The notes below the pieces were generated by a model, which did no database searches, was not told the DNA's origin, and saw nothing but the letters and a program-made list of their open reading frames with translations. Below are positions 7,964 through 60,650 of a stretch of DNA of 64,000 nucleotides, in pieces. Within the stretch, counting starts at the first letter, position 1. Every line of letters starts with the position of its first letter. Both the position numbers and the translations under genes were made by a program. Source of the stretch: Alphaproteobacteria bacterium (GTDB lineage Bacteria; Pseudomonadota; Alphaproteobacteria; MPNO01); the NCBI GenBank assembly GCA_964291675.2, contig OZ219866.1, positions 2,752,001-2,816,000 of the forward strand, written 5' to 3'.

Positions 7964-8403
7964 AACTCGCCCGGCACGAACAGATTGTCGGTGCCCGGCC
8001 CGGTGCTGCCCTCGGGTTCGTCGGCGACGGTGAAGTTGAGCTCGATGATCACCCCGTTGGGGTCGCGCACGAAGAGCTGCCACAGCCCGAAGGTGGGGAT
8101 CGCGAACTCGCGGTGCGGCATGTCGAGCTCGACCACCCGCCGCTTCATCGCGTCGTAGTTATGCGCCTTGACCGCGACATGGTCGACCGAGGCGCTGCCA
8201 TGCGTCGGGTTGCCGTCGTTGTCGAGCCCCGCATCGCCGGCCATGATGTGGAACATCGTGCTGCCGAGGTCGAACCAGGTGCCCGGGAAGTCGAAATCGG
8301 GCCGCTCGATCTTCTCCAGGCCGAGCACCTCTTCGTAGAACCGGTCGGTGGCCTCGAGGTCCTGCGTCTTGATCGCGACGTGATGGATGTCGAGAAGGGG
8401 CAT
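7960..8403 (-). CDS. VOC/glyoxalase family protein
   Basis: IHHVAI...FYEEVLGL, VDHVA, LFVRDPNGVIIELNF. Confidence 0.88.
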   Translation of the reverse strand: MPLLDIHHVAIKTQDLEATDRFYEEVLGLEKIERPDFDFPGTWFDLGSTMFHIMAGDAGLDNDGNPTHGSASVDHVAVKAHNYDAMKRRVVELDMPHREFAIPTFGLWQLFVRDPNGVIIELNFTVADEPEGSTGPGTDNLFVPGEF

Positions 8404-8622
8404 CGGGATCTGCGCTCCTGAGAATGGGGACGGCACCTAATCTAGGATTTATCCGTCCCGGTTGGAAGCGGTGCCCCTTGCCCCGCGTCCGGGTCCGGGG
8501 ATAAGCGATTCCAATAGCCCCCATCGGAAAATTCGTCTGGCGACGACGGCAGGAGTCCCCAGCTGAGTCGTCAGCGCCTCTATCCGAGTTGCGCGCCGCA
8601 GCGACAGGCTTGGAGACGAGCG

Positions 8623-27087: not shown

Positions 27088-27516
27088 CTACTCCAGGCGG
27101 ATCGCCCGTAATGGTTCGAACCGGTCGAAATCCCGGTCGTTCGTCAGCACGGTGTCGATTCCGTGTTCAAGGCACAGGGCCGCGATCTGGGCGTCGAACA
27201 TCAGATTGCCGCGCGTCTGCGCCCGCCGGGCGGTGTCGATCAGGATTTCGATGAACTCCGCGCCGGGGCGTACGATCTCGCAGCTCGGAGCGGAAGCGAT
27301 CCCCTCGACGAACGCGGTCGCCTGCGCGACCGTGGAGGCCGGGTTGAACACGCGCGGGTGCGTGACGACCCGCAGGAATTCGGTCACGCAGAACACCGGC
27401 AGAGCCCATCTCTCCGCCCCTTCGGCCAGGATGACGAGCCTCGACGCGGCTGCCTCATGCAGCGCCGTCTCGCCCCGATGCGCACATATCAGAATGTTCG
27501 TATCGAGCGCGATCAC
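27088..27516 (-). CDS. vapC: PIN-domain toxin VapC
   Basis: IALDTNIL, EFLRVVTHP, FDAQIAA, TNDRDF. Confidence 0.92.
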   Translation of the reverse strand: MIALDTNILICAHRGETALHEAAASRLVILAEGAERWALPVFCVTEFLRVVTHPRVFNPASTVAQATAFVEGIASAPSCEIVRPGAEFIEILIDTARRAQTRGNLMFDAQIAALCLEHGIDTVLTNDRDFDRFEPLRAIRLE

Positions 27517-27749
27517 GCGCCGTCGATCACGTCATAGAGGGCGTTCCGGTCGGCAACGTCCACGTTGGGCGGCGCGTAACCGGTCACCGTCGCCAGCTTG
27601 AGCCGGTAACCCCGCGCCCCGCCGCGCGGCTCGGACAGACGGGCGCGCAGCGCGTCCTCCACGAACCGGGTGAGTGTGATACCGTCCCGCGCCGCGCGCC
27701 GCTTCGCCAGGCGCAGCACCCGATCGTTCAGATTGAGCGTCGTCTTCAT
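27513..27749 (-). CDS. vapB: VapB-type RHH antitoxin
   Basis: MKTTLNLNDRVLRLAKRRAA...VEDALR; 4-nt overlap with vapC. Confidence 0.88.
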   Translation of the reverse strand: MKTTLNLNDRVLRLAKRRAARDGITLTRFVEDALRARLSEPRGGARGYRLKLATVTGYAPPNVDVADRNALYDVIDGA

Positions 27750-27892
27750 CGCGGATCGGCCGGGACGGTTGCGTATGGCTGAACCATATCGCCGGCGGAA
27801 ACACATGGAAAGCGGTTCCGCAGGCTTTGCCGCCCGGCGCGGCGGCGGTCACAATATCCGCGGGCCGGGCGCGCCGGCCGGGAGGGGGTGCG

Positions 27893-34574: not shown

Positions 34575-34867
34575 GGCGGCTTTCGATAGGCTCCCGTCCG
34601 GGGCTGGTCGGGATGAGGGTGTGGCCAGGCATCGCACCGAAGAGTGCCGAAGCCCGATTCAGAAGATAGCGGCTCTCGGCCGCATCCAAACCCGTCGTTC
34701 TTGCTTTCGATGCCAAGGGAGCAATATACGGAGTGACTTCTGCGAGGTACGGAGCGGCATGATGAGAACCTTCGGTTCCAGCTCCATGGCCTCGCCGGGA
34801 TGGGTGAGGGAACCTGGTTCCGGTTCAACACGCTCACGTTTGACCGGAAATGTCGGGAACATGAACG

Positions 34868-35263
34868 ATGGCGACTCGAAGGACTCGAAATCCCAATTCG
34901 GGGGAAACGGTCGAGGCGAAAGCAGTCGATATCGAGACTAGCGAAGATCGATCCGGCTTCGACATATCTCCACTCATTCTGCGGGAGATTGCACTGGATA
35001 GTGGAGTCTTGCGCCGGAATGCGCCGTTCGTCGTGAAACCCTACGTCTCGGAATCACATGAGTGTTATCGGGCGGAAGTAGAAGAGCTCGGACTCTCGAT
35101 TTCAGCGTATACCAGGCAAGAATTGGTGGAAGCGATTCAAGACATGATAGCCGTTCTTTGGCAAGAGTATGCCATGGAAGACGATGAAAATCTGACGGAG
35201 AGCGCCGCCGCTCTGAAGCGACGCTTATTGGAAGATTTCCGGATCGTGGACAATGCAACTTGA
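34868..35263 (+). CDS. HicB-like antitoxin
   Basis: YRAEVEELGLSISAYTRQELVEAIQDMIAVLWQEY; low GC; overlaps the next ORF. Confidence 0.6.
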   Translation: MATRRTRNPNSGETVEAKAVDIETSEDRSGFDISPLILREIALDSGVLRRNAPFVVKPYVSESHECYRAEVEELGLSISAYTRQELVEAIQDMIAVLWQEYAMEDDENLTESAAALKRRLLEDFRIVDNAT

Positions 35264-35534
35264 ACGACGGGAAGTGTTGCATAGTCTAGAACACAAGGGA
35301 TTTGGAAGAATAGAGGGCAAAAGGCACACAATACTGATTTACTACAACAAGGACGGAAAGAAGACCGGCATTAAAACTATTGTAAGTCGAGGCACCGGAT
35401 ATAAATATCTCGGCAATGACTTGGTGGGTGCCATGGCAAGGCAATGCGATCTTACAACATCCCAATTTGTAGCGCTTGTCGATTGTTCGATGTCACGCGA
35501 CGACTACGACGATCTATTGGGCGGCGACCGATAG
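35253..35534 (+). CDS. HicA-like toxin (dsRBD-fold mRNA interferase)
   Basis: LEHKGF...GKRH..YY..DGKKT..TIVS..G...LVGAMARQC.L..QF; 93 aa. Confidence 0.6.
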   Translation: MQLERREVLHSLEHKGFGRIEGKRHTILIYYNKDGKKTGIKTIVSRGTGYKYLGNDLVGAMARQCDLTTSQFVALVDCSMSRDDYDDLLGGDR

Positions 35535-35618
35535 TCGACCGGGGGTGGTGCATAGCTTCGGTGCGCTGGCAGGGCGATCGGTGAGCAGGCGCCGACCTTC
35601 TCCATGTCGCCTCCCCGC

Positions 35619-35735
35619 ATCCGCCCCTCCTCGACCCCATGGCAGGCGACCGCCGCGCCGCCGGCGGGCGTGAGCTCCGGGCGTTCCGGGCGGCGGCGGT
35701 TCTCCGGGCACGGGCAGCGCGGGTGGAAGGCGCAG
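35619..35735 (-). pseudogene. degenerate copy of the 3' end of the dppF-like gene (41748-41864)
   Basis: 117-bp ungapped match with 13 mismatches by hand count; encodes CAFHPRC...ERPEL.PAGGA.VACH.VEEGR. Confidence 0.9.
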
Positions 35736-35827
35736 ACCGTCGGCCGCCCGTCCGGTACCCGGCATCGCGGGCTCGACGGGGTGGGAACCATAGCGCTCAG
35801 CGGGGCTGATGGACGAGGGAGCGAGGC

Positions 35828-36760
35828 TCAGCCCAGCTGGCGCCCCATCCACCTTATCTCTCCGACGATCCGGGCCCCGTTCGGCCAGGGCTCGTCGGGC
35901 CAGTCGGGATGATCGCATACCATGAGGCGCCGTCCCTCTTCGTCGGTAGTGATGCGCCTGAATAACGTGTCGTCGCCGAATTTCACGACCTTGATGCCAG
36001 CCGGATCCAAGTCCGTGTTCGTACCATCGACCACGGTCACGCACCCGTTCGGAAGCGTCGGCTCCATCGATTCGTCCCGAATCGGGACGAGGGTCCAGCG
36101 CGCAGGGTCGAGACCATCCGCCTCCAGCCGGTGTGCCAGGAGTTTCCGGAATTTCGGCAGCCGTTTCACAGGGTCGTCTTCGAGAATAGACGCCTCAAGC
36201 GGGTCGTCCCCCCGGAGAGAAGGCATGATGGCGCGGAGCAGCTGCGCTTCCGCGGTAGCAGCCAGATCTTCGGCCGATGGTTCGCTCGCCGACCCGCCAA
36301 TGGGCGCGCGCCGAAGGTCTCCCGTCATGGCGCGAAGACCGGTGTCGAAGTCGACTTCATCTACCTTTGGCCCCATGGCAGGCGGGTCCTCCTGGGCGGC
36401 CTGCGGTTCGGTGGGTCGTCGGGCGAGGAGGACCGGCCAGAGGTCTTCGGGGATCGGGTCGCCGTCGGCGTCTACGGTGATTCGGACCAGGTCCCGCGCC
36501 GATCGCTCCAGAGAGCGGAGAGGGACATCGGGCAGCGCGCCCCCGTCCTCGGCCCGGCGCCACCGCGGCGGTCCGACATAGAACTCCAGGCCGAGCACGT
36601 CGCAGAGTGAGCGCAGCCGTTCCACCGAGGGAACATGGCCGCGCCGCATGTCCCGGATCAGCTCGGGCGCGCCTAGCGCCCGTATCGAGGCTGCCCGGGC
36701 CGAGATCCCCCGGCGTTCGAGCGCGGCGTCGATCTCTCGCAGAATGTCTTCCACGCGCAA
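35828..36760 (-). CDS. CI-like repressor: N-terminal HTH plus degenerate S24 peptidase domain
   Basis: ISARAASIRALG.PELIRDMRRGHVPSVERLRSLCDVLGL; C-terminal DESMEPTLPNG..VVD...TLFRRI...IVGEIRW. Confidence 0.85.
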   Translation of the reverse strand: MRVEDILREIDAALERRGISARAASIRALGAPELIRDMRRGHVPSVERLRSLCDVLGLEFYVGPPRWRRAEDGGALPDVPLRSLERSARDLVRITVDADGDPIPEDLWPVLLARRPTEPQAAQEDPPAMGPKVDEVDFDTGLRAMTGDLRRAPIGGSASEPSAEDLAATAEAQLLRAIMPSLRGDDPLEASILEDDPVKRLPKFRKLLAHRLEADGLDPARWTLVPIRDESMEPTLPNGCVTVVDGTNTDLDPAGIKVVKFGDDTLFRRITTDEEGRRLMVCDHPDWPDEPWPNGARIVGEIRWMGRQLG

Positions 36761-36881
36761 GGGATATATCCCTCGCCTGCGGAAGACAACCCTATGAACC
36801 GGCGAACAAATCCGAGAGAGAAAGGATGATATGCCAGATATGTGATATTTCTCTTGATATAAGGTATATTTTCCTCATAAG
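36760..36881. promoter_or_regulatory. divergent AT-rich control region with three 14-bp operator-like sites
   Basis: AGGGATATATCCCT (36760-36773, perfect palindrome), TGTGATATTTCTCT (36841-36854), AGGTATATTTTCCT (36862-36875); TTGATA-N16-CATAAG in front of cro. Confidence 0.65.
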
Positions 36882-36890
36882 CTCCGCGCC

Positions 36891-37184
36891 ATGAATGAAT
36901 CGTCCTTGGTCCGTCTGGCAGAGCGGTTCGCTGCGGCGCGCGGAATAAGCCTGTCACGCGTCGCATATCTGGCAGTCGACGACGGCAAGTTCTTCAGCCG
37001 TCTCCAGGCCGGGCGGACCTGCACCCTCCGCTCGGCGCGGAACGTCATCGAGTATCTCAGCCGCAACTGGCCTGACGACTCCGCCGAATGGCCCGGCGAC
37101 ATCCCGCGTCCCGCGCCGCGACCCGACGGCGAAAGCGGGGCGGCAACCCTCTCCCGGGAGCCGGCTTCCTCGCCGCTTACCTGA
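36891..37184 (+). CDS. Cro-like small HTH protein (alphaproteobacterial phage type)
   Basis: GISLSRVAYLAVDDGKFFSRLQAGRTCT...W..WPGDIPRP; divergent from the CI-like gene. Confidence 0.75.
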   Translation: MNESSLVRLAERFAAARGISLSRVAYLAVDDGKFFSRLQAGRTCTLRSARNVIEYLSRNWPDDSAEWPGDIPRPAPRPDGESGAATLSREPASSPLT

Positions 37185-37232
37185 ATTCGAGATCGCAGAC
37201 GCCGACAGTCATCAAACCGGTTCGAGGTTGCC

Positions 37233-40200
37233 ATGTACATCGCCGATCCGATCGAAACCGCGAAAATCGCTCCAGAACGCCCCCACCCGCTCGAACGGTT
37301 CCACGGTTCTCCCGCTGGGACCGCTGCCAGGTGCCGAACTGGCGGGGCGGTGGCGGCCGCCCTGGCGGCGGGACTTCTTGTCCTGGCCGACGCTCCCCTG
37401 TCCCCGGCCCCGGCCGCGGTGACCTGCGACGACGCGTGGACCCGGGGAACCCTCGACGCGAGCGGCCGATGGACGACGGGCGCGGGCAACGACTACCGGA
37501 TAGGATGCACTGCAGATACCGACGGCGATGCGATGACAGCCGCCGATGGTCCGGATGATATTCCGGCCAACGCCGACACGCTGGTCATCGACGTGTCCCA
37601 TCCCAACATCGATCGCGTCGTGCAGATAATCCCGGACGCCGAGGGCGGCCGGCTGGCGCTGACCGGCAATCTCGCATCCGATGCGGGGAGCAACGTCTTC
37701 ATCCGTATCGACGGCTTCACGGCCGGATACGAAGCCGCCGATGCCGTGCTCGAATCCTTCGCGACCATCGAAGCTTCCGGCGACGGCAACGACGGCATCG
37801 TGCTCAGGAACAACGACGCAAGCCATACCGGCACGATAGAAGCGATCAACCGGGGCACGATTTCCACAACCGGCGACATGTTTGCGTATGGGATGCTTGT
37901 CTTTTCGGAGTCTTCCTCGGCCCGCGCCGTCAACGCCGGCACAATCACGACCGGCGGCACCGCCGGGCGCGGCGTTACCACCCACGTCGAGAGCGGAAGC
38001 GCCGGAACCGCGACCTCGATCAACCGGGGAACGGTCCGCACGTCCGGCGGCGTTTGTCAGACCTGTGGTGGCAATTTCTTCGTACCGTCGGACGGCGTCC
38101 GCGCGTACCACAACGATAACGGCAACGCCGAAGCGTCGAACGCGGCCGGCGGCACCATTGCGGTCGCCGGAATCGGCGGCCGCGGCGTCAGCGCCCACGC
38201 GAATGGCGACGGCAGCGCGGTCGCCGGGAACGCCGGCTCGGTCGTGACCAGGGGCGATGCCTTCGTGTATCCGTCGAACGACGGGTGGATCGGCCCCTAC
38301 GGGGTGCTCGCCTGGTCCGAGCGGGGGAGCGCGACGGCGCGCAGTTCGGCGAGCGGCAGCGTGGAGACCTATGGCGTGCCGGGCTACGGCGTCGTCGCCA
38401 TCTCGAGAGGCAGCGGCACCGCGAGCGTGGAAAACGCGGGCGCGGTCGTCACCCATGCGACCGGCTCGATCGACACCCTGCCCAACAATGTCGGGCTGGA
38501 GATCGGCGCGCGCGGGCTCTTTGCGACCTCGTGGCGCGGCGACGCCAGCGTCGTGAACCAGCGGTCCGGCTCGGTCGAGACCAGGGGCGCGCGCGCCTTC
38601 GGCGCGATTGCCTGGACCAGCAACGACGGCAGCGCCAGATCGGCGACGGCCACGATCCGCAACAGGGGCCGGGTCGCCACCGGCGGCGACAATGCCGATG
38701 CCGTCATCGCCCTGTCCACCAGCCGCGCAACCGCGGACAATCCCAATACCGTGCGCGCCTATAACGAGGACGGCGGCACGATCACGACCACGGGGGATGC
38801 CGCCAGCGGCTTGGGCGCGGCGATTCTGGTGGCCCGCGGCGGCCAGGGTTACGGCAGCGCGTTCGCCCAGAACGCGGGCACGATCGCGACCGAAGGTGCG
38901 CGCGGCGGGGTCACGGGCACCGATATCGCCTTCGGCATCACCGCCAGCTTCTTCAACAACGACGGTGGGCTCATCACCCGCGCCGGCGACGTGGAGGCGC
39001 GCAATACCGGCTCGATCGAGGTCTCGGGCGAAGCGGCGCAGGGTATCCAGGCGCGTACCTTCGGCAGCGGACGGGCCACCGTCGTGGTCGACGGCGGGAG
39101 GGTGGTCGCCACGCACGATTCCGCCACCGACGCCGACGACGGGGTGGGCATCCACGCATCGAGCGGCGCGGCCGGCTCCATCGCGGTGACGCTCGACAAC
39201 CGCGCGCTGGTCCAGGCGCCGCAGGCGATGCTTCTGGGCGACGCACCGGCGACCGTCACGGTCATGAGGAGCTCCGTGGTGCGGGGCCGCATGTCGTTCG
39301 GCGGATCGGCCGACAGCCTCAAGATCGACAACAGCGTCACGGTGGGCGACATCGCCACGGGCGGCGGGGATGACGTCATCCGCGCGTATGGCGCGGTGAC
39401 GATGACCGGCGACATCGACTTCGGCGCCGGGGAGGACGAGCTGATCCTCGACGTGAGCGGAGCGTCCCGCCTGACCGGCAACATCACCAACCTGGAGACG
39501 CTGAACAAGCTGTGCCCGGGCGATTTCACCATCAACGGCGACATCACCTTCGCCGGCAGCTCGGTCGTCGTCTCGGAAGGCGGGCTGGTGCTGACCGGGC
39601 ACATGAATGTCGGCGCGGACGGCACGGTGGAGGTACATGACGGCACGAGGCTGACCGCGCTGCTGACCGCGACCGGCACGCCCAGGATCACTGCCGGCGG
39701 CGGGACGACGGTGCGCGACGGCGGCGCGGTCGTCGTCGAGGCGGCGGCGGACGCCCGACCGGTCGAGGCGGCAGAGGCGGTGGCGACCTTCCTGGAGGGC
39801 GCGAACGTGCAGGGCGGGGAGGCGCTGCCGGTCCAGACCCGCGACAGCGGCGGTTCGCTGACCCGGCTCGCGTCGTTCGACCCGGCGACCGGGACGGCGA
39901 CGGTCATGCAGGGCGCTTCCGTCGGCGCCAGGCCGGCGGAACGGTTCCCCGAGCAACCGGGTGTCTCTCCCACACCGACCCCCGATCCAGAGCCGACTCC
40001 GCCCGCGCCGACTCCGCCCGTCAGCGGCGGCGGCGGCGGCGGGGACGACAACACCGCCCTGCTCATCGGCGGCGGCGCGATTCTGGCGGCGTTGTTCGCC
40101 GTGCTGGACTGGGATACCGAGGCGCCGGCCTCGTCCGCCTCGCTGAACCCGGCACTCGTCCAGCCCCTCGATCGTTCGTCGCGCTACTGGGTGCGCAGCC

Positions 40201-40991
40201 TGTCGCGGGTCATGCCCGAGAGCGGCGCCGGAGCGGCTTCGGGCACCGAGATCGGCATGGATTTCGCGCTCGGCGACGGCTTCGTCCTCGGATTCGCTGC
40301 CGCGCCCGACGCCGCCCTGGAGCGGGCGGGCGCGGGTGCCCATGCGACGGCGCTGTCGGGCGGCCGCTACGCCCTCAAGGGGGGCTGGCAAAGCGAGACC
40401 CTGTTCGGCGCGCTCAGCCTGTCGCAGGCACGCTGGCGGGTGGCGAGCGCCTATCGGAACCCGACGCTTGGCGGCGGTCTTCGCAGCCGCTACGAGGCGG
40501 CCCAGAGCGACGTGAAGCTCGGCCTCGGCGCGCGCCTCGACCTCGGGGCGGGGCTCACCCTCACCCCGCTCGCGGGCGCGTTCGCCGGCGAGCTGAGGCA
40601 TGAGAGCCATACGGCGGAAGGCCCGGTATTCCGCGCCGCGATGCCGGAGGTCGTCCAGCGCTATGGCGGCTGGAGGATGGGGCTCGACCTTGCGTCCGAC
40701 TGGCAGGACGGGCCGGGGGATCTGAAGCTGCGCCCCTCGCTCAAGCTCGGCGCGGCGCGCATTTGGACGGATTCGCCCGAATTCGCGCTCCGGCAGTCGG
40801 ATCGCCTGGGGATCGTCTCCACCGCCAGCCGGGCCCGTCTGCCCGGTGCGCCCGGGACCGTGCTCGGCCTCGGCACGGGCCTCGATGCCGTCGGCCCCCA
40901 CGGGCTCAGCCTGGGGCTCAGGTATGGCGGTCTGGCGATGGACGGCAAGCTCGTCCACGCCGCCTTCGCCAGGGCGAAGCTCTCCTTCTGA
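37233..40991 (+). CDS. autotransporter (type Va-like) with beta-helical passenger
   Basis: GAGG RBS; signal-like hydrophobic stretch; many NxGxIxT repeats; Pro/Gly linker; amphipathic beta-strand C-terminal domain ending in Phe (AKLSF). Confidence 0.85.
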   Translation: MYIADPIETAKIAPERPHPLERFHGSPAGTAARCRTGGAVAAALAAGLLVLADAPLSPAPAAVTCDDAWTRGTLDASGRWTTGAGNDYRIGCTADTDGDAMTAADGPDDIPANADTLVIDVSHPNIDRVVQIIPDAEGGRLALTGNLASDAGSNVFIRIDGFTAGYEAADAVLESFATIEASGDGNDGIVLRNNDASHTGTIEAINRGTISTTGDMFAYGMLVFSESSSARAVNAGTITTGGTAGRGVTTHVESGSAGTATSINRGTVRTSGGVCQTCGGNFFVPSDGVRAYHNDNGNAEASNAAGGTIAVAGIGGRGVSAHANGDGSAVAGNAGSVVTRGDAFVYPSNDGWIGPYGVLAWSERGSATARSSASGSVETYGVPGYGVVAISRGSGTASVENAGAVVTHATGSIDTLPNNVGLEIGARGLFATSWRGDASVVNQRSGSVETRGARAFGAIAWTSNDGSARSATATIRNRGRVATGGDNADAVIALSTSRATADNPNTVRAYNEDGGTITTTGDAASGLGAAILVARGGQGYGSAFAQNAGTIATEGARGGVTGTDIAFGITASFFNNDGGLITRAGDVEARNTGSIEVSGEAAQGIQARTFGSGRATVVVDGGRVVATHDSATDADDGVGIHASSGAAGSIAVTLDNRALVQAPQAMLLGDAPATVTVMRSSVVRGRMSFGGSADSLKIDNSVTVGDIATGGGDDVIRAYGAVTMTGDIDFGAGEDELILDVSGASRLTGNITNLETLNKLCPGDFTINGDITFAGSSVVVSEGGLVLTGHMNVGADGTVEVHDGTRLTALLTATGTPRITAGGGTTVRDGGAVVVEAAADARPVEAAEAVATFLEGANVQGGEALPVQTRDSGGSLTRLASFDPATGTATVMQGASVGARPAERFPEQPGVSPTPTPDPEPTPPAPTPPVSGGGGGGDDNTALLIGGGAILAALFAVLDWDTEAPASSASLNPALVQPLDRSSRYWVRSLSRVMPESGAGAASGTEIGMDFALGDGFVLGFAAAPDAALERAGAGAHATALSGGRYALKGGWQSETLFGALSLSQARWRVASAYRNPTLGGGLRSRYEAAQSDVKLGLGARLDLGAGLTLTPLAGAFAGELRHESHTAEGPVFRAAMPEVVQRYGGWRMGLDLASDWQDGPGDLKLRPSLKLGAARIWTDSPEFALRQSDRLGIVSTASRARLPGAPGTVLGLGTGLDAVGPHGLSLGLRYGGLAMDGKLVHAAFARAKLSF

Positions 40992-41006
40992 AGCCGCTTC
41001 CCGCCC

Positions 41007-41718
41007 ATGGATGGCCGGATCGAGTCCGGCCATGACGAAGGGGGGGTTCGGCACGTCCCCCACTCCGTCATGGCCGGACTCGATCCACTGGTGTCCGGTT
41101 TAGATGAGCTGGACCGGGCGCAAAGCCTTGTTCCGGGCGGGATATCGGCGCATCCGCCGGATCGGGACACGGATCGCCGCACGCCCGCACTTGCCGTCCG
41201 TGCCCCTCCGTTGTCACCCCGGCCTCGTTCCGGGCACCCACGGGCGGGGCGGGCCGCACCCGGCTCCCGTACTCCTCCACCGCCACCCCCACCCCGTCAT
41301 GGCCGGACTTGATCCGGCCACCCATGCGCGGACTTGATCCGCGCAACCACTAGCGCCACCGGTACAACGCCCCGTCGGGAGGAGCGGCGGCGCCAGTGGA
41401 TGCCCGGATCACCCCCGGACTTGATCCGGGGGCCGGGGCATGACGATGGGGGGAGGCATGGTGATGGGGCGGGAAACGCCGGGCGCGACGCGCGTCGAAG
41501 GCTAAACCGGACAGCAGTGGACTTGATCCGGCCATCCATGCGGCGTCCCCGCTTGCGAGGCGGCCGGCGGGAAGGGGCGGCGGCGCCAGTGGATGCCCGG
41601 ATCAAGTCCGGGCATGACGATGGGGGGAGGCATGGCGATGGGGCGGGAAACGCCGGGCGCGACGCGCGTTGAAGGCTAAACCGGACAGCAGTGGACTTGA
41701 TCCGGCCATCCATGCGGC
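41007..41718. repeat. complex cluster of family B REPs with nested insertions and a tandem duplication
   Basis: At least 7 GTCATGxCCGG/GGACTTGATCC units; units 41384-41544 and 41577-41718 are near-identical. Confidence 0.9.
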
Positions 41719-41740
41719 CTCTCGGCCCGTAAGGCCGGGC

Positions 41741-42721
41741 TCAGGCGATCCGCCCCTCCTCGACCGCGTGGCAGGCGACCTCCGCGCCGCCGGCGGGCCT
41801 GAGCTCCGGGCGTTCCCGGCGGCAGCGCTCGTCGGCGTGCGGGCAGCGCGGGTGGAAGGCGCAGCCCGGGGGCGGGTCGATCGGGCTCGGCACCTCGCCG
41901 GCGACGGGTTCGCGCTCGCGTCGGCTCATCGAAAGGTCGGGGATGGTGTCGAGCAGCAGCCGCGTATAGGGGTGGCGCGGGCGGCCGAACAGGGTCGCGG
42001 TGTCGGCGAGCTCGCAGATCCGCCCGAGATACATCACCGCGACCCGCGACGAGACGTGATAGACCACCGCGAGGTCGTGCGAGATCAACAGATAGGTGAG
42101 CCCGAGCGCGCGTTGCAGCGCCTTCATCAGGTTGAGGATCTGCGCCTGCACCGAGACGTCGAGCGCCGAGGTCGGCTCGTCGCAGACGATGAACTCCGGC
42201 TCGCCCGCCAGCGCCCGGGCGATCGAGATGCGCTGGCGCTGCCCGCCGGAGAACTCGTGCGGGTATTTCTCGCCGTCGACCGGCGAGAGGCCCACGCGGG
42301 TCAGCAGCCCGGCCACCCGTTCCTCCACCGCCGCGCGGTCGGGCAGCAGCCGGTTGTGGCGGATCGGCTCGGCCACGATGTCGCGCACCCGCCAGCGCGG
42401 GTTGAGCGAGGCGTAGGGGTCCTGGAAGATCATCTGCATGCGCCGCCGCGCCGGCGATGCCGGGCCGAGCTCGGCGCCGGCATAGCGGATCGAACCGGCG
42501 CCCGGCGCGTGCAGGCCGACGATCAGCCGAGCGACGGTCGACTTGCCGCAGCCCGACTCGCCCACGAGCGCGAAGGTCTCGCCGCGCCGGATCGCGAAAT
42601 CGACCCCGTCCACGGCCTTCACGATGCGCCGCCCGCCGCCCTCGACGGCGCGGTTGAGCCAGGGCGGGGAGACGTCGAAATGGCGCTTGAGCCCGGCGAT
42701 TTCGACCAGCGGATCAGCCAT
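41741..42721 (-). CDS. peptide ABC transporter ATP-binding protein (DppF/OppF)
   Basis: GESGCGKS, FSGGQRQR, CDEPTSALD, HPYT, CAFHPRC. Confidence 0.95.
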   Translation of the reverse strand: MADPLVEIAGLKRHFDVSPPWLNRAVEGGGRRIVKAVDGVDFAIRRGETFALVGESGCGKSTVARLIVGLHAPGAGSIRYAGAELGPASPARRRMQMIFQDPYASLNPRWRVRDIVAEPIRHNRLLPDRAAVEERVAGLLTRVGLSPVDGEKYPHEFSGGQRQRISIARALAGEPEFIVCDEPTSALDVSVQAQILNLMKALQRALGLTYLLISHDLAVVYHVSSRVAVMYLGRICELADTATLFGRPRHPYTRLLLDTIPDLSMSRREREPVAGEVPSPIDPPPGCAFHPRCPHADERCRRERPELRPAGGAEVACHAVEEGRIA

Positions 42722-49251: not shown

Positions 49252-50960
49252 CCTAAATCCGGCAGTTGCTGGTGGTCTGGATTGGCTGGAGTCCTTGTAG
49301 ACTGCGGGGATGAGCGGATTTGGAGAGACCGGAGAGGGTCACCCTGCGGGTGAGGATCCCTGCGCGGTGCGGGACGTCGCCTGCGAGGCCGTGAAGGTGG
49401 ACACCTTCGGCGGCACGGTTCATGTCGAATGGGACCCCGACGCGGCGGTTACGCCGCTGGGCCATCTGGCATTTTTCGCGGAATATCTGAAGGTGAGCGG
49501 GCGCTTCGAGGCGCTGGTGGCGGACTGCCCGCTGCATTACGCGAGCCCGAACGCGCCGTCGAAGCGGGACATTCTGGGCACGGTGCTGCTGTCGGTCCTG
49601 GCGGGCCAGTCGCGCTATGCGCACATCACGGCGCTGCGCGGCGACGGGGTGAACCCGGCGCTTCTGGGGATGGGCAAGGTTGCGAGCGAGGATTCGGTGC
49701 GGCGCGGCCTGGAGCGGATCGCGGCGGATGAGGGCACATCGTGGCTTCAGGGCCATCTCGACGACACGCTTCGTCCCCTGCTGAGCGAGCCCTGGGTTCT
49801 GGATTGCGACACCACGATCAAGCCGCTCTACGGCCGCCAGGAGGGGGCGGTGGCGAGCTACAACCCGAAGAAGCCGGGCCGCCCGTCGCACGCCTGCCAT
49901 GCGTTCCTGATGGCGGGCACGCGGCTGGTTCTGGATGTCGAGGTTGCGCCGGGCAACCGTCACCGTTCGATGCGGGCGGCACCGTCCCTGTGGGCCTTGC
50001 TCGACCGTCTCGGCCGGGATCGCTGGCCGCGCCTGGTGCGGGGCGACAAGGACTGGGGCAGCGAGGGCAACATGGCGTCGTGCGAGGCGGCGGGTCTGGA
50101 CTATCTGTTCAAGCTGCGCCTGACCAAGGGGGCGCGCCGGCTTGCCGAGCGGCAGATGGGTCGGGACGGCTGGCAGGACGCGGGCCAGGGCTGGCAGGGG
50201 ATCGGGGCCGCGCTCCGCCTGCACGGCTGGAGCCGGTCGCGCCGGGTGGCGGTGCTGCGCCGCCGGCTGCGCGAGCCTCTGGCGCTGACGCGCCACGACG
50301 ACGGCCAGGGCGAGTTGTTCTGGACCGAGGCGCGGCCCGGCACCGGGGTGTGGGAGTTCGCGGTGCTCGCGACCTCGCTCGATCTGGAGGTGCGCTCGCT
50401 GGCCCAGCTCTACCGCGACCGAGCCGATGCCGAGAACGGCTTCGACGAGCTTAAGAACCAGTGGGGCTGGGGCGGCTTCACCACGCGCGACCTGACGCGC
50501 TGCCGCCACATGGCCCGGCTGATCGCGCTGATCTATAACTGGTGGAGCCTGTTCGTCCGCCTCGCCGATCCCGACCGCCACCGCGAGGCGATCACCAGCC
50601 GCCCGCTGCTGTTGCACGGCGTCGCCCGCCAGACCCATCATGCCGGCCAGACCCGGCTGACGGTGACCTCCCATCACGGGCGCCGCGCGGCGGTGGCCGC
50701 GGCCCTGCGGCGGATCGCCGGCTTCTTCCGCGCCCTGGCGCAAACTGCGGAGCAGTTGACCGCCGAGGATCGCTGGCGCCGCATCCTCGCCGAAGCGCTC
50801 AAGAAATACCTCCATGGACGCCAGCCCGGCCGTCAACCCTGGCTGCCGCCCCCTCGGGCCGCGCCAGCGTGCTGAAATCGACCCCTGAAATCGACCCCTG
50901 AAATCGACCGTCCAGACCGCGCCAAGAGGCCGATCGCGCCCTCCAACTGCCGGATTTAGG
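49252..50960 (+). mobile_element. IS1380-family insertion sequence, complete (1709 bp)
   Basis: Perfect 17-bp terminal inverted repeats CCTAAATCCGGCAGTTG (49252-49268 and 50944-50960); 5-bp target duplication CTTAT (49247-49251 and 50961-50965). Confidence 0.92.
49310..50875 (+). CDS. DDE transposase (IS1380-like)
   Basis: LDCDTT..PLYGRQEGA..YNP, VRGD, YRDRADAENGFDELKN. Confidence 0.92.
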   Translation: MSGFGETGEGHPAGEDPCAVRDVACEAVKVDTFGGTVHVEWDPDAAVTPLGHLAFFAEYLKVSGRFEALVADCPLHYASPNAPSKRDILGTVLLSVLAGQSRYAHITALRGDGVNPALLGMGKVASEDSVRRGLERIAADEGTSWLQGHLDDTLRPLLSEPWVLDCDTTIKPLYGRQEGAVASYNPKKPGRPSHACHAFLMAGTRLVLDVEVAPGNRHRSMRAAPSLWALLDRLGRDRWPRLVRGDKDWGSEGNMASCEAAGLDYLFKLRLTKGARRLAERQMGRDGWQDAGQGWQGIGAALRLHGWSRSRRVAVLRRRLREPLALTRHDDGQGELFWTEARPGTGVWEFAVLATSLDLEVRSLAQLYRDRADAENGFDELKNQWGWGGFTTRDLTRCRHMARLIALIYNWWSLFVRLADPDRHREAITSRPLLLHGVARQTHHAGQTRLTVTSHHGRRAAVAAALRRIAGFFRALAQTAEQLTAEDRWRRILAEALKKYLHGRQPGRQPWLPPPRAAPAC

Positions 50961-56737: not shown

Positions 56738-57346
56738 CTAGTTCGACGCCTTTTCTCGCAATGTGTCGACCAAGCGCTTCGCGTGCGGAGAAGCGTCCAA
56801 TACATTGCCGGAAGCGACTTGGGCCAAAATGCCGTAGGAGTGATTGCCCTTGTGGTACTCGCCTCTCTTCGACCGACGGGTCGCGTCCCGCAGCCCGCGA
56901 AGCACGTCGGCCTTGGCGACGTTCTCGACTTCCCGGCTGCCTGGGAGCGCATTGCGACTGAAGCCGGGACCAAAATAGGTCTCCAAACCGTCTCTGTCGG
57001 CCAGAAACCAAGCCTCCATGCACTGAACCATCAAGTGCGCATTCTCGTCCGCGGCCCCCGGCGGACGTGTCCACTTGTCTCGCGCCTCCAAGTGACGCCA
57101 GGACCCCGAATCGCCCTGAAGCGGGGCTTCGCTGTCGACCAGCAGCACTATGAACGCCTCGTCGCTGGCTGAACCCAATGCGGTGCGAAACTTGTCGAAC
57201 GCGGTGTGTCTGCTACCGCAGGCGACGATTCGTGGCATCCGTCCGGCCAAATTCGCCTTCTCGAAGAACGACGCGAATCCCTCGCGGCATCTCGTTCGCA
57301 AGTCTCGCGTGGTGCCGCCTCCCTCGACATAGACCTTGACGTTCAC
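56738..57346 (-). CDS. DUF4276-family (TOPRIM-like) protein
   Basis: VYVEGGG, LLVDSE, QCMEAWFLAD, YHKG; GTGA overlap with the ATPase. Confidence 0.8.
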   Translation of the reverse strand: MNVKVYVEGGGTTRDLRTRCREGFASFFEKANLAGRMPRIVACGSRHTAFDKFRTALGSASDEAFIVLLVDSEAPLQGDSGSWRHLEARDKWTRPPGAADENAHLMVQCMEAWFLADRDGLETYFGPGFSRNALPGSREVENVAKADVLRGLRDATRRSKRGEYHKGNHSYGILAQVASGNVLDASPHAKRLVDTLREKASN

Positions 57347-58533
57347 CACCGATTCCCTCCGAGCTCTCCAGAGGTCCACAGCTCGCCAAGCCGATACTTC
57401 TGAAGCCACCCAGAGAGCGTGTCTTTATCAGGGCGCTTCAGCGTCGTGTGCCCGCTCTCCTTCTCGCAGACCACTATGCTCTCCGATGTATCCGTCAACG
57501 CGTCCACCAAGGTGTCCGAGTGAGTAGTGACAATGAGCTGGCTCCGCTCGGAAGCGTCACGCAGCAAGTCGGCGAGGCCGGGAAGAATGTCGGGATGAAG
57601 ACCGAGCTCCGGTTCCTCAAGACAGACCACCGGCGGCGGAGCCGGGTGGCACAAGATGGCGAGCAGGCAAAGGTAGCGGAGCGTGCCGTCCGACAGCCTC
57701 GTGGCGGGAATGGTGATATTGCGTTCCTGGAGAAACACCTGTACGGAACCCGCCTCGACCCTTACGTCGAAATCGTCTATTCCCTCATAGAGCCGCCGCA
57801 ATGCAGCGAGAAACCTGTTCTTTGCCTTGGGATCTCCCCTCAAGCGGTTCAACACCATCCCCAAATTGTGTCCGTCTTCCGCCAAAGTGTGGTTCGGGAG
57901 ATCGGCCTTCTGCGGCAATCTGGGCGCTGTGTTACGTCCGAAGGTCCACTCCCTGTACAGATGTATCCTCCCCAAATCCATTCCAAGGATGGTGAGTTCA
58001 GGATACTGCACCGGGTCCTTCAGCTGCGACAAAATCGATTGATCGTTCTTGACATCCGTCGGGGCGAGTTGGCGCTGTTTCCGTCCGCCATTCTCGTCCC
58101 GATAGTTCAAACGAATTGCGCTGCTGTCGCGGGAAAGATACCACTGTCTGCCGGTGTCTGCCTGTTCAGCTTGTTCGACCTCCGCGATTTCTTCAGTCAG
58201 ATTGGGCGCTCCGAAGAAAAACGGTCCAAAGGAAAGACTGTAGCGAATCGGCGGTCTGTCGGGGCGGAACAGGGGCTGGTCTACGACAACCTCCACTCGC
58301 GCCGTTGAATTATGCCGTTCGCCGCGCCAGATCCAATTGTCGCTCCCGCCTCCTTCGCGTATCGGTGCAACCAGATCGGTCGGCGCGGCCTTGAGCAGGC
58401 CGAACACTTCGAGGAAATTTGACTTGCCGGAGCCGTTGGGGCCAATCAATACGTTGAGCGGCTTCAGCTCCACTTCCTGGGCGTCGGGGCCGAAGGAAAG
58501 TATGTTCTCGATCTTGATACTGTGCATGAACAT
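57343..58533 (-). CDS. AAA_21/SMC-like ABC ATPase
   Basis: IGPNGSGKSN, LSDGT, LEEPELGLHP, TTHS; lower GC than flanks. Confidence 0.9.
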   Translation of the reverse strand: MFMHSIKIENILSFGPDAQEVELKPLNVLIGPNGSGKSNFLEVFGLLKAAPTDLVAPIREGGGSDNWIWRGERHNSTARVEVVVDQPLFRPDRPPIRYSLSFGPFFFGAPNLTEEIAEVEQAEQADTGRQWYLSRDSSAIRLNYRDENGGRKQRQLAPTDVKNDQSILSQLKDPVQYPELTILGMDLGRIHLYREWTFGRNTAPRLPQKADLPNHTLAEDGHNLGMVLNRLRGDPKAKNRFLAALRRLYEGIDDFDVRVEAGSVQVFLQERNITIPATRLSDGTLRYLCLLAILCHPAPPPVVCLEEPELGLHPDILPGLADLLRDASERSQLIVTTHSDTLVDALTDTSESIVVCEKESGHTTLKRPDKDTLSGWLQKYRLGELWTSGELGGNRW

Positions 58534-58693
58534 CTCGTGGGTCCCGGTCGTGTAGATCGCACGAGGAAGATCAGGTTGGCGCCACGCCTGCCGCGACCAA
58601 CGATAACTTGCCGCCGTTCGAACCACCAGCCGTTGCACGCATGGCGGTGACCGCGAAGCTCGGGCGAGCCGTTCTCCTCCGACGCCGCCCCGT

Positions 58694-60190
58694 TCAGGCC
58701 GCCGCGAACATGCCGTGCAGCGCCATCGGCAGCGGGTAGGGAAGAATGCCCTGCCACAGCGGCCCGTCGGCGATGCGTCCGGCCTCGAACAGGTTGAGCC
58801 CGGCGGCCTGGCGGCGGGTGTCGATATAGGGACCGATCAGCCAGCCCTCGCCCTCGTCCGGGCCGCGCGCGACGAATACGTGCTCCTCCGGGATCTGGTG
58901 CCGCGGATAGGTCCAGGCGTCCACCGCGCCGCCTTCCGGATCGAGGCTGGCCGCCGCGCGCAGCGGCCAGCCGCCGACAGCGCCGTCGCCGGTGAGCGCG
59001 AACAGCCTGCGGTGCCGCCGAGCCGTGTATCGTCCGTCGATGCGCGGGAACTCGGCAACCCCCGGAGCCCCGTCCTCGATCCCGGCGCCGCCGTCCGGGC
59101 GCAGCACGGCGACGCGGTACCGGGGATGGGCCGACCGGAAGTCCAGGGCGCCCCGCATGACGGCGCGCAGATCGCCGGTCACGAAGCCGGGGTCGGGCGC
59201 CTGGCACAGATCCAGCCGGATCGTGCCGTCGGCCTCTTCCCAGCCATTGCCGTGGTGGAAGTGGAAGCCGGGCGGCAGCTCGTGGCGCCGGACGGGTTGC
59301 AGCGTGTCCTTGTCGACCGCCACGACGCGGGTGCCGAGCCCGGGCCGCCAGGCATGGGCGTCGAGGAACGTGGCGTGGCTCGACGCCCCGTCGATCACGA
59401 ACGGGGTCAGCAGCACGACCAGATGGCGCGCCGTCACCACGAAGTCGTGCGCCATGCCCAGCGGTCCCGTGTCGGGCAGGAGATTGGCCGCGACCCGCCG
59501 CCCGCTGCGGTCGATCCGGTAGAGCAGCAGGGCCGGGCGCGGCCGGGTCGCGAAGCCGATATTCCACAGCGTCCCGTCGGGCTCGACCTTGGGGTGGGCG
59601 GAGAACGGCAGGCCGGCGAGATCCGGGCGCCAGGCGACGAAATCTCCGGCGGCGAGGGTGTCCGGGTCGACCGCGAGCGCCGAGCCGCCCTCCCACAGGG
59701 CCATCAGCCGCTCGGCATGGGCGAGCATGGCGGTGTTGGCGACGTTCATGTCGTCCGGGCCGCGCAGCGCCGCCGGCCCCGGGGTTCCGAACCCCGGCAG
59801 GATACGCTTGCCCGCGCGGGTCTCGCGGCGCCGCTTGGGGGTGTCGAGAATGCGCGCGCGGTGGTTGACGCGTCCGTCCGCGAAGGCGAACGCCTGGACC
59901 ATCCCGTCGCCGTCGAACCAGTGGGCGTAGCGCCGGCCGAAGCGTTCGTGCTCGGCCGGGCCGTTGCGCCACAGCACGCCGGCGAGACCGGCGGGAAGCC
60001 GCCCGCTCAGCGTTTCGACCGGCGCGGCGAAGCTCTCCGCCCGCGCGGTCGCGAAGGCGACCAGCCGGGGGTCGCGGGCGATCGCCGCGGCGAAATCCTC
60101 CCGGGGGCCGGCGGCGGCGCCCGCCGCCATGAGCGCCGGCAGCCCGGCGAGCGTGCGGAGCGCCGCGCGGCGCGACAGCTCGGCCTTCAT
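58694..60190 (-). CDS. carotenoid/lignostilbene cleavage dioxygenase family protein with Tat-like signal
   Basis: SRRAAL twin-Arg leader; RNGP, HWFDGDG; four Fe-His motifs (SAHPK, AHDF, FHH, LHG); EFPRID. Confidence 0.93.
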   Translation of the reverse strand: MKAELSRRAALRTLAGLPALMAAGAAAGPREDFAAAIARDPRLVAFATARAESFAAPVETLSGRLPAGLAGVLWRNGPAEHERFGRRYAHWFDGDGMVQAFAFADGRVNHRARILDTPKRRRETRAGKRILPGFGTPGPAALRGPDDMNVANTAMLAHAERLMALWEGGSALAVDPDTLAAGDFVAWRPDLAGLPFSAHPKVEPDGTLWNIGFATRPRPALLLYRIDRSGRRVAANLLPDTGPLGMAHDFVVTARHLVVLLTPFVIDGASSHATFLDAHAWRPGLGTRVVAVDKDTLQPVRRHELPPGFHFHHGNGWEEADGTIRLDLCQAPDPGFVTGDLRAVMRGALDFRSAHPRYRVAVLRPDGGAGIEDGAPGVAEFPRIDGRYTARRHRRLFALTGDGAVGGWPLRAAASLDPEGGAVDAWTYPRHQIPEEHVFVARGPDEGEGWLIGPYIDTRRQAAGLNLFEAGRIADGPLWQGILPYPLPMALHGMFAAA

Positions 60191-60194
60191 CCCC

Positions 60195-60650
60195 TCAGCT
60201 CCCCGGATAGGCGATGCTGACGGCGACGGAAACGCGCCCGTCATCCGGGCCCACGGTCACCGCCGCCTCGTCGAAGCCCGGCGGGCCCATGAACCCCGTG
60301 GCGCCGTTGGAAAACCCGAACCCCTCGGTGGGAAGTCCGACCATGTTCTGGCCCAGCTTGCCGTCGCCGTCGGCATCGTGGAACGCCGCGACCGCGTAGT
60401 CGCCCGGCGCGAGGTCGGCGAAGACGAAGCGGAGCGCGCCGGTGCCGGCCGTGCGCCAGGCAGCCGCGACGACGCCACCCTCCGGGAAAGCGGCGCCCGG
60501 GACGCGCTTGTGGACGGCAACCCGGGCCTGGCCCTGCGCCGAGCGCAGGCCGTCGACCACGACCTCCAGATCGGCGGCCACGGCGGTCGACGAAACGAGG
60601 AGCGCGGCCGCTGCGGTGCGGCAAATTCCGAGAGTTCTTGAAATCGTCAT
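60195..60650 (-). CDS. DUF2141 family exported protein
   Basis: Signal peptide, PGDYAVAAFHDADGDGKL...GLPTEGFGFSN. Confidence 0.9.
   Translation of the reverse strand: MTISRTLGICRTAAAALLVSSTAVAADLEVVVDGLRSAQGQARVAVHKRVPGAAFPEGGVVAAAWRTAGTGALRFVFADLAPGDYAVAAFHDADGDGKLGQNMVGLPTEGFGFSNGATGFMGPPGFDEAAVTVGPDDGRVSVAVSIAYPGS

Follow-up and report, generated by a model that had tools for sequence, protein, structure and literature searches.

Several regulators of phage origin, PrtR/PrtN and AlpR among them, have been adopted by bacterial hosts, and DicA/DicC is a repressor/Cro-type pair that persists in a defective element and controls non-structural downstream genes affecting host physiology. Phase-variable surface proteins are known to arise through slipped-strand repeats, invertible promoters and methylation switches; expression of the autotransporter Ag43 (flu) of Escherichia coli is heritably ON or OFF through Dam and OxyR, the DNA sequence remaining unchanged. 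The dicBF genes of Qin, a cryptic prophage of E. coli, are reported to be under DicA/DicC control (10.1101/2023.04.14.536235, 10.1101/708461), and the Ner protein of phage Mu is reported to have given rise to the host transcription factor SfsB (Nlp) (PMC8987985). Among the papers listed by full-text literature searches, none deals with an autotransporter or another surface gene under a pair of the cI/Cro type, which does not prove that there is none. The present analysis concerns a stretch of 64,000 nucleotides (contig OZ219866.1, positions 2,752,001 to 2,816,000; hereafter the window) from an alphaproteobacterial genome of 4.8 Mb and 69% G+C, in which a CI-like repressor gene and a divergent gene for a small Cro-like protein stand directly upstream of the gene for a large autotransporter. 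The best explanation overall, to which we give a probability of about one half, is that an orphan module derived from a Mu-like phage captured the autotransporter by promoter replacement and is now likely co-transcribed with it. The elements of the locus are as follows.

35828..36760, minus strand: CI-like repressor, 310 amino acids (aa), with an N-terminal four-helix helix-turn-helix (HTH) domain, a long variable linker and an S24 C-terminal domain
36761..36890, no strand: divergent control region, 130 bp, 45% G+C against 69% in the genome
36761..36772, no strand: palindrome GGGATATATCCC, 12 bp, at the repressor start; putative operator overlapping the repressor promoter
36842-36870: sigma-70-like site for the Cro-like gene, GTGATA-17-TATATT
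36891..37184, plus strand: small HTH protein in Cro/Ner position, 97 aa, divergent from the repressor
37185..37232, plus strand: 48-bp gap to the autotransporter; a ribosome-binding site, GAGG, lies 5 nt upstream of the ATG
37233..40991, plus strand: autotransporter, 1252 aa, with a signal-peptide-like N terminus, a repeat-rich passenger and a C-terminal beta-barrel ending in Phe

The arrangement resembles lambda cI/OR/Cro in its repressor with HTH and S24-fold domains, its divergent small HTH gene and its AT-rich shared control region, as well as in the position of the repressor start codon within a few bases of a promoter-like element; the lambda cI mRNA made from PRM is leaderless. It differs from lambda in that the sequences are distant, the repressor has Arg in place of Lys192 and no Ala-Gly in its linker, three tandem operators are not evident and the locus does not lie in a prophage. 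Qin is still a recognisable prophage and dicB a phage gene, whereas here the rest of the phage is gone and the probable target is a pre-existing host surface protein. SfsB is likewise a Mu-type immunity-region regulator taken over for host gene control; it is, however, a single protein acting on distant metabolic genes, whereas here both switch genes and their control region lie directly upstream of the probable target. Ag43 has the phenotype that the original prediction puts forward for this locus, an autotransporter heritably ON or OFF with its DNA unaltered, and relies for it on methylation competition at GATC sites, in contrast to the two-repressor circuit proposed below. The immunity regions of the Mu-like Rhodovulum phage RS1, Rhodobacter phage RC1 and Thiobacimonas phage vB_ThpS-P1 share with the locus a divergent repressor and small HTH gene, and a viral contig has an operator-like GGGATATTACCC at the equivalent spot. 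Unlike in these phages, no transposase, B, Gam or other phage gene accompanies the pair in the window, and a host autotransporter lies downstream.

Residues 221-302 of the repressor matched Pfam Peptidase_S24 with an expectation value (E) of 6.9e-7 and 29.4 bits (cutoff 23.3), and the protein matched PHROG families phrog_4 ('transcriptional repressor', 4e-10) and phrog_6201 ('CI-like repressor', 3.9e-6). The N-terminal 66 residues gave weak scores with HTH_31 (0.01) and HTH_3 (0.13). In an AlphaFold2 (AF2) model the N-terminal ~60 residues form a four-helix bundle, linker residues 110-215 have a predicted local distance difference test (pLDDT) score below 50, and the C-terminal domain gives Foldseek matches to LexA and to its counterpart in lambda cI (E 9.5e-5 to 4.8e-4). 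A profile search of the PDB (hmmsearch) likewise placed the repressor nearest the lambda cI C-terminal domain (E 1.5e-4). In their C-terminal domain the repressor of the window and the c repressors of the phages RcapMu and RcapNL and of the Pseudomonas D3112/DMS3 group are also similar. A candidate start codon is the GTG at 36754; (G/A)TGG is conserved after CCCTTG in 11 aligned control regions, and this GTG is probably the true start.

The 97-aa protein matched no Pfam or NCBIfam family and was assigned to phrog_7669 (E 2.2e-22). Its AF2 model (mean pLDDT 78) contains four helices, and its Foldseek matches were weak (E 0.5-4) and all to XRE-type HTH proteins, among them HipB, C.Esp1396I and 434 Cro. 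A scan of one genome per species, covering 185,579 species, found 11 loci of the close repressor family; homologues of the 97-aa protein, 50-66% identical, are encoded divergently from the repressor in 10 of these and in metagenome locus L038, that is in 11 of 12 related loci. One distant match lies on a Thioclava megaplasmid. The idea that the DNA-binding domains of the two proteins are paralogues, based on their common four-helix pattern, found no support in the sequences, with an hhalign probability of 0.2%.

Homologues of the 97-aa protein also occur in nine phage records, with 33-42% identity to phage genes in the Cro/Ner position. The RS1 homologue is the first of the genes read rightward; a 'CI-like repressor' close to the left end diverges from it, and after it come small open reading frames (ORFs), a transposase and a 'DNA transposition protein'. 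In Agrobacterium phage Rivra, the homologue has 'repressor protein CI' on one side and 'regulatory protein CII' on the other. Two IMG/VR contigs, L053 and L054, carry an RS1-like repressor at the contig end, then the homologue, then a Mu A-like gene. Between repressor and Cro-like gene, L054 has GGGATATTACCC, one mismatch away from the palindrome. A distant version of the pair in a prophage of a genome from the window's genus (G011, prophage L033) stands ahead of genes encoding Mu-transpos_C, Phage-MuB_C and Mu Gam domains. The RS1 repressor aligns with that of the window over both domains, including the motif G..PSV..L..L...LGLE.Y.GPPR. Judged by these relatives, the pair descends from the immunity region of a Mu-like transposable phage, where it held the c/ner position, and not from a lambdoid one. 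The pairing of the two genes is not due to chance: the divergent pair recurs in the related loci, in the metagenome locus and in real phages.

Nothing else of such a phage was detected in the surroundings. Homologues of Mu A, B and Gam were found neither in the 64-kb window nor in the whole genome, and no integrase, replication, structural or lysis family is represented among 23 neighbouring ORFs at 20-59 kb. The genome has no second copy of the repressor, the 97-aa gene or the autotransporter. No homologue of Mu A, B or Gam was found in the 12 related loci either, inspected up to 8 kb on each side with prophage L033 as positive control; the neighbours of these orphan loci are housekeeping genes. 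The close repressor family was not seen among 2.9 million IMG/VR viral contigs (0 relatives among 52 pattern matches) or on 72,556 plasmids, and the repressor alignment yielded 0 relatives among 601 pattern matches in the Joint Genome Institute (JGI) metagenomes. The Cro-like alignment yielded 2 relatives among 32 in the same metagenomes, of which L038 is the usable one. Bistable or not, the orphan family clearly exemplifies a phage immunity region that its hosts retained once all other phage genes were lost; it is marked by a near-invariant DNA-binding domain, a fixed operator and the loss of the catalytic Lys.

The control region carries a palindrome that is conserved in the family. The sequence GGGAWWWWTCCC, with at most one mismatch, is found at the repressor start in the window and in all 12 related loci, and further copies in those loci lie solely beside the Cro-like gene or its cargo. 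A TTGCC is conserved ~15 nt upstream of the palindrome and the repressor start codon follows within ~8 nt, a spacing which suggests that the palindrome is an operator overlapping the promoter of a repressor mRNA with almost no leader. The 11 aligned control regions also have conserved CAAG and ATATA blocks; on the side of the Cro-like gene there are just conserved A/T-rich blocks, which may be promoter elements. The palindrome occurs exactly once in the 4.8-Mb genome, and the single copy with one mismatch (contig C1, position 534997) apparently lies within a low-G+C coding sequence. Regulation of distant genes by the module was considered and set aside.

The history of the junction with the autotransporter was read from the sister genome G010, which belongs to the same genus, is 100% complete and has, at the same site with ubiD and dppF as its neighbours, an autotransporter orthologue of 81% identity. 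Two further features are defined by this comparison.

34581..37361, no strand: mosaic segment, 2781 bp, not in sister genome G010, where 437 bp stand in its place between ubiD and the autotransporter
37233..37361, plus strand: derived 5' end of the autotransporter; the start codon is new, and the N-terminal extension (MYIADPIE...) has no homology to the ancestral start of MTGSGS type

Homology to G010 (locus L009) in blastn stops at 34580 and restarts at 37362. The G010 autotransporter is preceded by 437 bp of unrelated DNA and starts with MTGSGS...; positions 36741-37240 of the window showed no similarity above shuffles to the G010 spacer between ubiD and the autotransporter, and no repressor homologue was found in the whole G010 genome with the same query. 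The insert contains a toxin-antitoxin-like pair, a scrap of dppF, the repressor gene, the 97-aa gene and the first ~43 autotransporter codons. The N termini of 8 full-length close homologues (P0002-P0008 and P0010) were compared. Six have the MTGSGS-type start or a close variant, P0007 is longer with a different start, and the MYIAD... start of the window is shared by P0002 only (80% identical), which keeps the new frame across an in-frame indel of 11 aa (33 nt). The MTGSGS-type N terminus is present in orthologues down to 54% identity, and a region search with autotransporter residues 1-48 returned only the query. Since most homologues have the MTGSGS-type start and P0002 alone the MYIAD start, the G010-type N terminus is taken to be ancestral. 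On this comparison, the 2.8-kb mosaic insert replaced the native promoter, the start codon and approximately the first 43 codons of the autotransporter, and the link between module and autotransporter is recent.

The ratio of nonsynonymous to synonymous substitution rates (dN/dS) of the autotransporter against G010 was 0.41 for the whole gene and 0.26-0.27 for its C-terminal half, against 0.21-0.24 for the flanking genes; the gene is intact and, on these values, under purifying selection. Over 37362-40988, the synonymous rate (dS) against L009 was 0.28, about twice that of ubiD (0.13) and dppF (0.15), an excess that hints at allele exchange or faster evolution. The autotransporter promoter of G010 contains GATATATCC and was considered as a possible bearer of the same operator. 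Its local alignment score of 22 lies within the range of shuffles (mean 21.6, maximum 30) and G010 has no repressor homologue by the same query, and the resemblance was therefore rejected as chance.

The last 299 aa of the autotransporter matched the beta-domain PF03797 over residues 49-279 (E 1.2e-11, 45.3 bits, cutoff 26), the C-terminal barrel expected of a classical (type Va) autotransporter, and the protein terminates in ...AKLSF; searched as a whole protein it gave no Pfam match. A hydrophobic stretch, AVAAALAAGLLVLA, followed by APA|AV, is common to the orthologues and lies here behind the new extension of ~30 residues. The passenger is built of repeated N-x-G-x-I/V-x-T-x-G motifs and had no Pfam or PDB sequence match and no family assignment, so that 'adhesin', the word of the original prediction, is an assumption. 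The protein database labels the autotransporter and most of its relatives PF27417.1; the Pfam copy searched gave no match to PF27417.1. The gene is an accessory one, present in 3 of 41 related genomes searched. A scan of the 48-bp gap upstream detected no terminator-like site and no good promoter either, and the fold of 37120-37245 was no more stable than that of shuffles (z 0.76). Since its own promoter is gone and yet the gene is under selection, the autotransporter is presumably read from upstream, and the promoter of the Cro-like gene at 36842-36870 is the putative source because it is the only promoter-like site found there. Most likely, then, the autotransporter depends on the promoter of the Cro-like gene and forms the second gene of an operon.

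In the original prediction, made from the DNA sequence of the locus, a CI-like repressor (HTH plus S24, minus strand) and a divergent Cro-like gene were described as sharing a 130-bp AT-rich control region, followed after a 48-bp gap on the same strand and without an obvious terminator by a 1252-aa autotransporter, no phage genes lying nearby. All of these parts were confirmed at the stated coordinates, with the reservation that the HTH portion of the repressor scores weakly and that the XRE-like fold of the Cro-like protein rests on weak matches, its position in phages Rivra and RS1 being that of Cro. The idea of a phage-derived switch without its phage is also upheld, as the module is a genuine phage-type one, with a repressor and a Cro-position gene, that stands alone. 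The lambdoid lineage assigned to it has to be given up: its relatives are Mu-like immunity regions next to transposase A and B genes.

A second departure from lambda concerns the response to DNA damage. In the repressor, Ser231 of the catalytic dyad is kept, Arg268 aligns to the catalytic Lys192 of lambda cI, and direct reading of the linker found no Ala-Gly. In an alignment of 27 repressor homologues from the protein search (45-76% identical overall), Arg268 is invariant (27/27), and many of the proteins have A, H, Y, F or V where the catalytic Ser would be. Lys is kept at the catalytic position in the phage RS1 repressor and in a distant homologue from genome G007; the repressor of Mu-like prophage L033 has Gly there. 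With Arg at the Lys192 position throughout the family and no Ala-Gly in the linker of the window protein, RecA-type self-cleavage has probably been lost and with it the RecA/SOS arm of the lambda switch.

These observations can be assembled into a model. A 2.8-kb mosaic piece entered a hotspot between ubiD and dppF and displaced the native promoter of a resident accessory autotransporter. The repressor, probably dimerising via its S24-fold domain, would shut the rightward promoter and so turn OFF both the 97-aa protein and the autotransporter. Once accumulated, the 97-aa protein would repress the repressor promoter via the palindrome, as Cro and Ner do, and lock the operon ON. Flipping would occur stochastically or through some input other than SOS, given that the repressor probably cannot cleave itself. 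The sequence comparisons establish the domain identities, the phage ancestry, the orphan status, the conservation of the operator and the replacement of the promoter; co-transcription, the assignment of each protein to a binding site, mutual repression and bistability are inferred. That the module controls the autotransporter we regard as slightly better than an even bet. That such control is both bistable and heritable is doubtful, and it is unlikely that the adjacency has no functional meaning at all.

The related loci show what follows the pair elsewhere. Genes in them were called with an ORF filter based on G+C content at third codon positions (GC3), not taken from annotation.

L015 and L017 (one context): GT25 lipopolysaccharide (LPS) glycosyltransferase 47 bp after the 97-aa homologue, then an FkbM methyltransferase
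L022 (another context): GT25 genes, two of them complete and one partial, from 38 bp after the 97-aa homologue onwards
L016, L019, L020 and L021 (one context) and L018 (another): lipoprotein of 173-207 aa, of no known family
L014: ATP-grasp operon 255 bp away
L013: convergent AlgH-like gene
L038: no clear follower
L012 (the window's genus): no 97-aa gene; repressor of 219 aa with an incomplete S24 domain, facing a fasciclin-domain secreted protein

In the repressor tree each type of cargo forms one well-supported clade, and the GT25 and lipoprotein clades each span two contexts. The cargo associations appear from this to be old; as kin share labels, they do not amount to independent replication. 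L019 and L021 have a second exact palindrome (7577-7588) before a promoter-like TTGAAT-17-TATTCT ahead of the lipoprotein gene, and L020 has its second copy at 7583-7594, between the Cro-like gene and the lipoprotein cargo. These copies suggest direct operator control of the cargo promoter in the L019-L021 clade. Across the family the N-terminal 65 residues of the repressor are near-invariant, the linker is hypervariable and the S24 domain is moderately conserved. The near-invariance of those residues in 27 proteins and the retention of the palindrome in 13 loci are signs that the family has been selected as a regulator and is not debris.

A number of observations weigh against capture and control of the autotransporter by the module. 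The association is specific to this lineage, the sister species represented by G010 having the same autotransporter without the module, and the insert, with its mosaic make-up, its toxin-antitoxin-like pair and its piece of a gene, resembles a recombination accident; a promoter may also lie inside the 97-aa gene. Profile comparison finds no sequence relation between the two DNA-binding domains, and the palindrome occurs once in the control region of the window, so that a lambda-type layout of several operators is not evident. Arg in place of Lys also fits plain descent from a phage lineage that was not SOS-inducible, and, as the repressor of L033 has Gly there, may have come with the lineage and say nothing of domestication. 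At around 8001-8700 of L016, L019, L020 and L021 the repressor ORF is cut short at 172 aa, and in L012 the repressor has 219 aa (8001-8660) and the Cro-like gene is missing; these truncations and this loss indicate that the module does decay. An autotransporter follows the pair in 0 of the 12 other loci, and the pairs of L013, L014 and L038 have no tightly linked co-directional gene. The truncated repressors (L012, L016, L019-L021) still have a highly conserved N-terminal DNA-binding part, an S24 remnant being present in another frame in L019-L021 and not detected in L016; they could be either DNA-binding-only variants or products of decay.

The wiring of the switch to the autotransporter, as proposed in the original prediction, was borne out insofar as DNA running on unbroken from the Cro-like gene now stands where the gene had its native promoter, its start and its first ~43 codons, and is weakened by the G010 orthologue, which has no such pair. 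The search for similar pairs ahead of autotransporter or adhesin genes without a phage was likewise divided in outcome: the followers vary and include no autotransporter, and four of the cargo types are envelope functions, several being spaced as tightly as in an operon.

A first rival explanation is that the locus is an inert scar, left by a decayed Mu-like prophage or a recombined foreign segment, with the autotransporter beside it by accident and either read from an overlooked promoter within or after the 97-aa gene or silenced and bound to decay. The mosaic insert with its dppF scrap and low-G+C toxin-antitoxin-like pair would suit such a history, as would the truncated repressors of L012, L016 and L019-L021, the variable or missing followers of homologous pairs and the lack of the module in G010. 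So would the insertion site itself. Over five same-genus genomes (G001, G004, G005, G008 and G010; loci L048-L051 and L009) the ubiD-dppF interval is empty in G001, at 73 bp, and elsewhere measures 1.4 kb (G004), 2.8 kb (G008), 4.2 kb and 7.3 kb (G005), with differing genes; it is a variable hotspot within the genus. Against a scar, both the repressor and the 97-aa ORFs are intact, conservation of the DNA-binding domain and of the palindrome greatly exceeds that of the remaining protein over 27 proteins and 13 loci, and the close family is not seen with phage genes either in IMG/VR or in the related loci. The autotransporter, for its part, is intact at a dN/dS of 0.41, and its new N-terminal frame has been kept in P0002, a protein just 80% identical. 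We consider an inert scar unlikely.

Still less probable is that the repressor is an immunity relic, kept against incoming Mu-like phages that share its operator, with the envelope genes as exclusion-type functions or incidental passengers. The same-type operator GGGATATTACCC in viral contig L054 speaks for this explanation, and conservation of the DNA-binding domain together with the operator could reflect a need for immunity to one phage group; envelope-modifying cargo, moreover, resembles lysogenic-conversion and exclusion genes. The cargo, however, lies on the Cro side and would be off while the repressor is on, the autotransporter predates the module, the close-family repressor was found in no phage, IMG/VR or plasmid collection searched, and the genome has no resident Mu-like prophage. 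Graded, signal-responsive one-way repression, with the 97-aa protein acting just as a co-regulator or anti-repressor and with no bistable or heritable state, would accord with the one clear palindrome in the control region of the window, with L012, where repressor and palindrome face a fasciclin-domain protein without a Cro-like gene, and with the long variable linker (110-215, pLDDT below 50) as a possible regulatory or sensor region, and is improbable in view of the Cro-like gene being kept in 11 of 12 related loci at 50-66% identity and of its phage homologues occupying the position of the second switch protein.

Returning to the capture of the autotransporter by an orphan Mu-derived module, the remaining features of the insert and its borders are listed here.

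34868..35534, plus strand: overlapping ORF pair, 131 and 93 aa, in a patch of 49-57% G+C between ubiD and the dppF scrap
35609..35780, minus strand: orphan copy of the 3' end of a dppF-like oligopeptide ATP-binding cassette (ABC) ATPase, 172 bp, abutting the repressor 3' end
41000..41740, no strand: dense cluster of repetitive extragenic palindrome (REP)-like repeats that separates the autotransporter from dppF; their core, GGACTTGATCCGGCCATCCATG, occurs in either orientation

The 93-aa ORF has a weak PHROG match to phrog_353 'toxin' (E 0.0017), and neither it nor the 131-aa ORF belongs to a Pfam or NCBIfam family; the two are possibly a HicA/HicB-like toxin-antitoxin pair riding on the insert. 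In L015 a DUF4258 plus HTH pair likewise lies just beyond the repressor gene. The dppF scrap is 81.6% identical to the 3' end of G010 dppF and forms direct repeat D1 with the resident gene (35619-35755 and 41748-41884, 85% identical; the repeat spans 137-172 bp). The two copies bracket the repressor, the Cro-like gene, the autotransporter and the REP cluster, and the repeat looks like an old integration or recombination scar, no integrase being present. That the repeats are the ends of an integrative island (35756-41747) was rejected: there is no integrase, the left repeat is missing from G010, which does have the autotransporter, and the G010-type N terminus is the ancestral one. The REP cluster comprises repeat families D4, D5, D11 and D19 and inverted pairs I1-I7, I14-I16, I23 and I24; G010 has just ~110 bp at this place between autotransporter and dppF.

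The neighbourhood at 20-59 kb is made up of metabolic and transport genes, a PIN-type toxin-antitoxin pair, an insertion sequence (IS) transposase and a defence-like ATPase pair. The closest mobile gene is this IS-type DDE transposase (49310-50875), ~8 kb off. The toxin-antitoxin pair, at 27088-27806, consists of a PIN-domain toxin with a small ORF upstream. At 56738-58638, an AAA_21/AAA_15 ATPase (431 aa) and a DUF4276 protein (223 aa) have lower GC3 and resemble an anti-phage defence pair. A tRNA-Met(CAT) of 96 nt called by ARAGORN at 59710-59805 is overlong and falls inside a high-GC3 ORF (58694-60244, minus strand); it is likely a false positive.

Taken together with the related loci, the window lends itself to a broader and tentative proposal: two-gene switches derived from Mu c/ner, without their phage, with the fixed specificity GGGAWWWWTCCC and with a repressor that probably cannot be cleaved, might serve Alphaproteobacteria as portable epigenetic ON/OFF cassettes for envelope genes. 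Such cassettes would operate in two modes, travelling with their cargo, as for LPS glycosyltransferases and the lipoprotein, or capturing a resident gene by promoter replacement, as for the autotransporter. The locus provides a clean natural comparison, in that the same autotransporter at the same site has its own promoter in the sister species and a phage-derived module here, and it puts a compact, orthogonal repressor/operator pair on offer for high-G+C Alphaproteobacteria. If the proposal is correct, surface structures in these bacteria would vary in phase without DNA change or methylation, and a transcription-factor toggle borrowed from a phage and placed before a host surface gene would constitute a further route to phase variation, movable by simple recombination.

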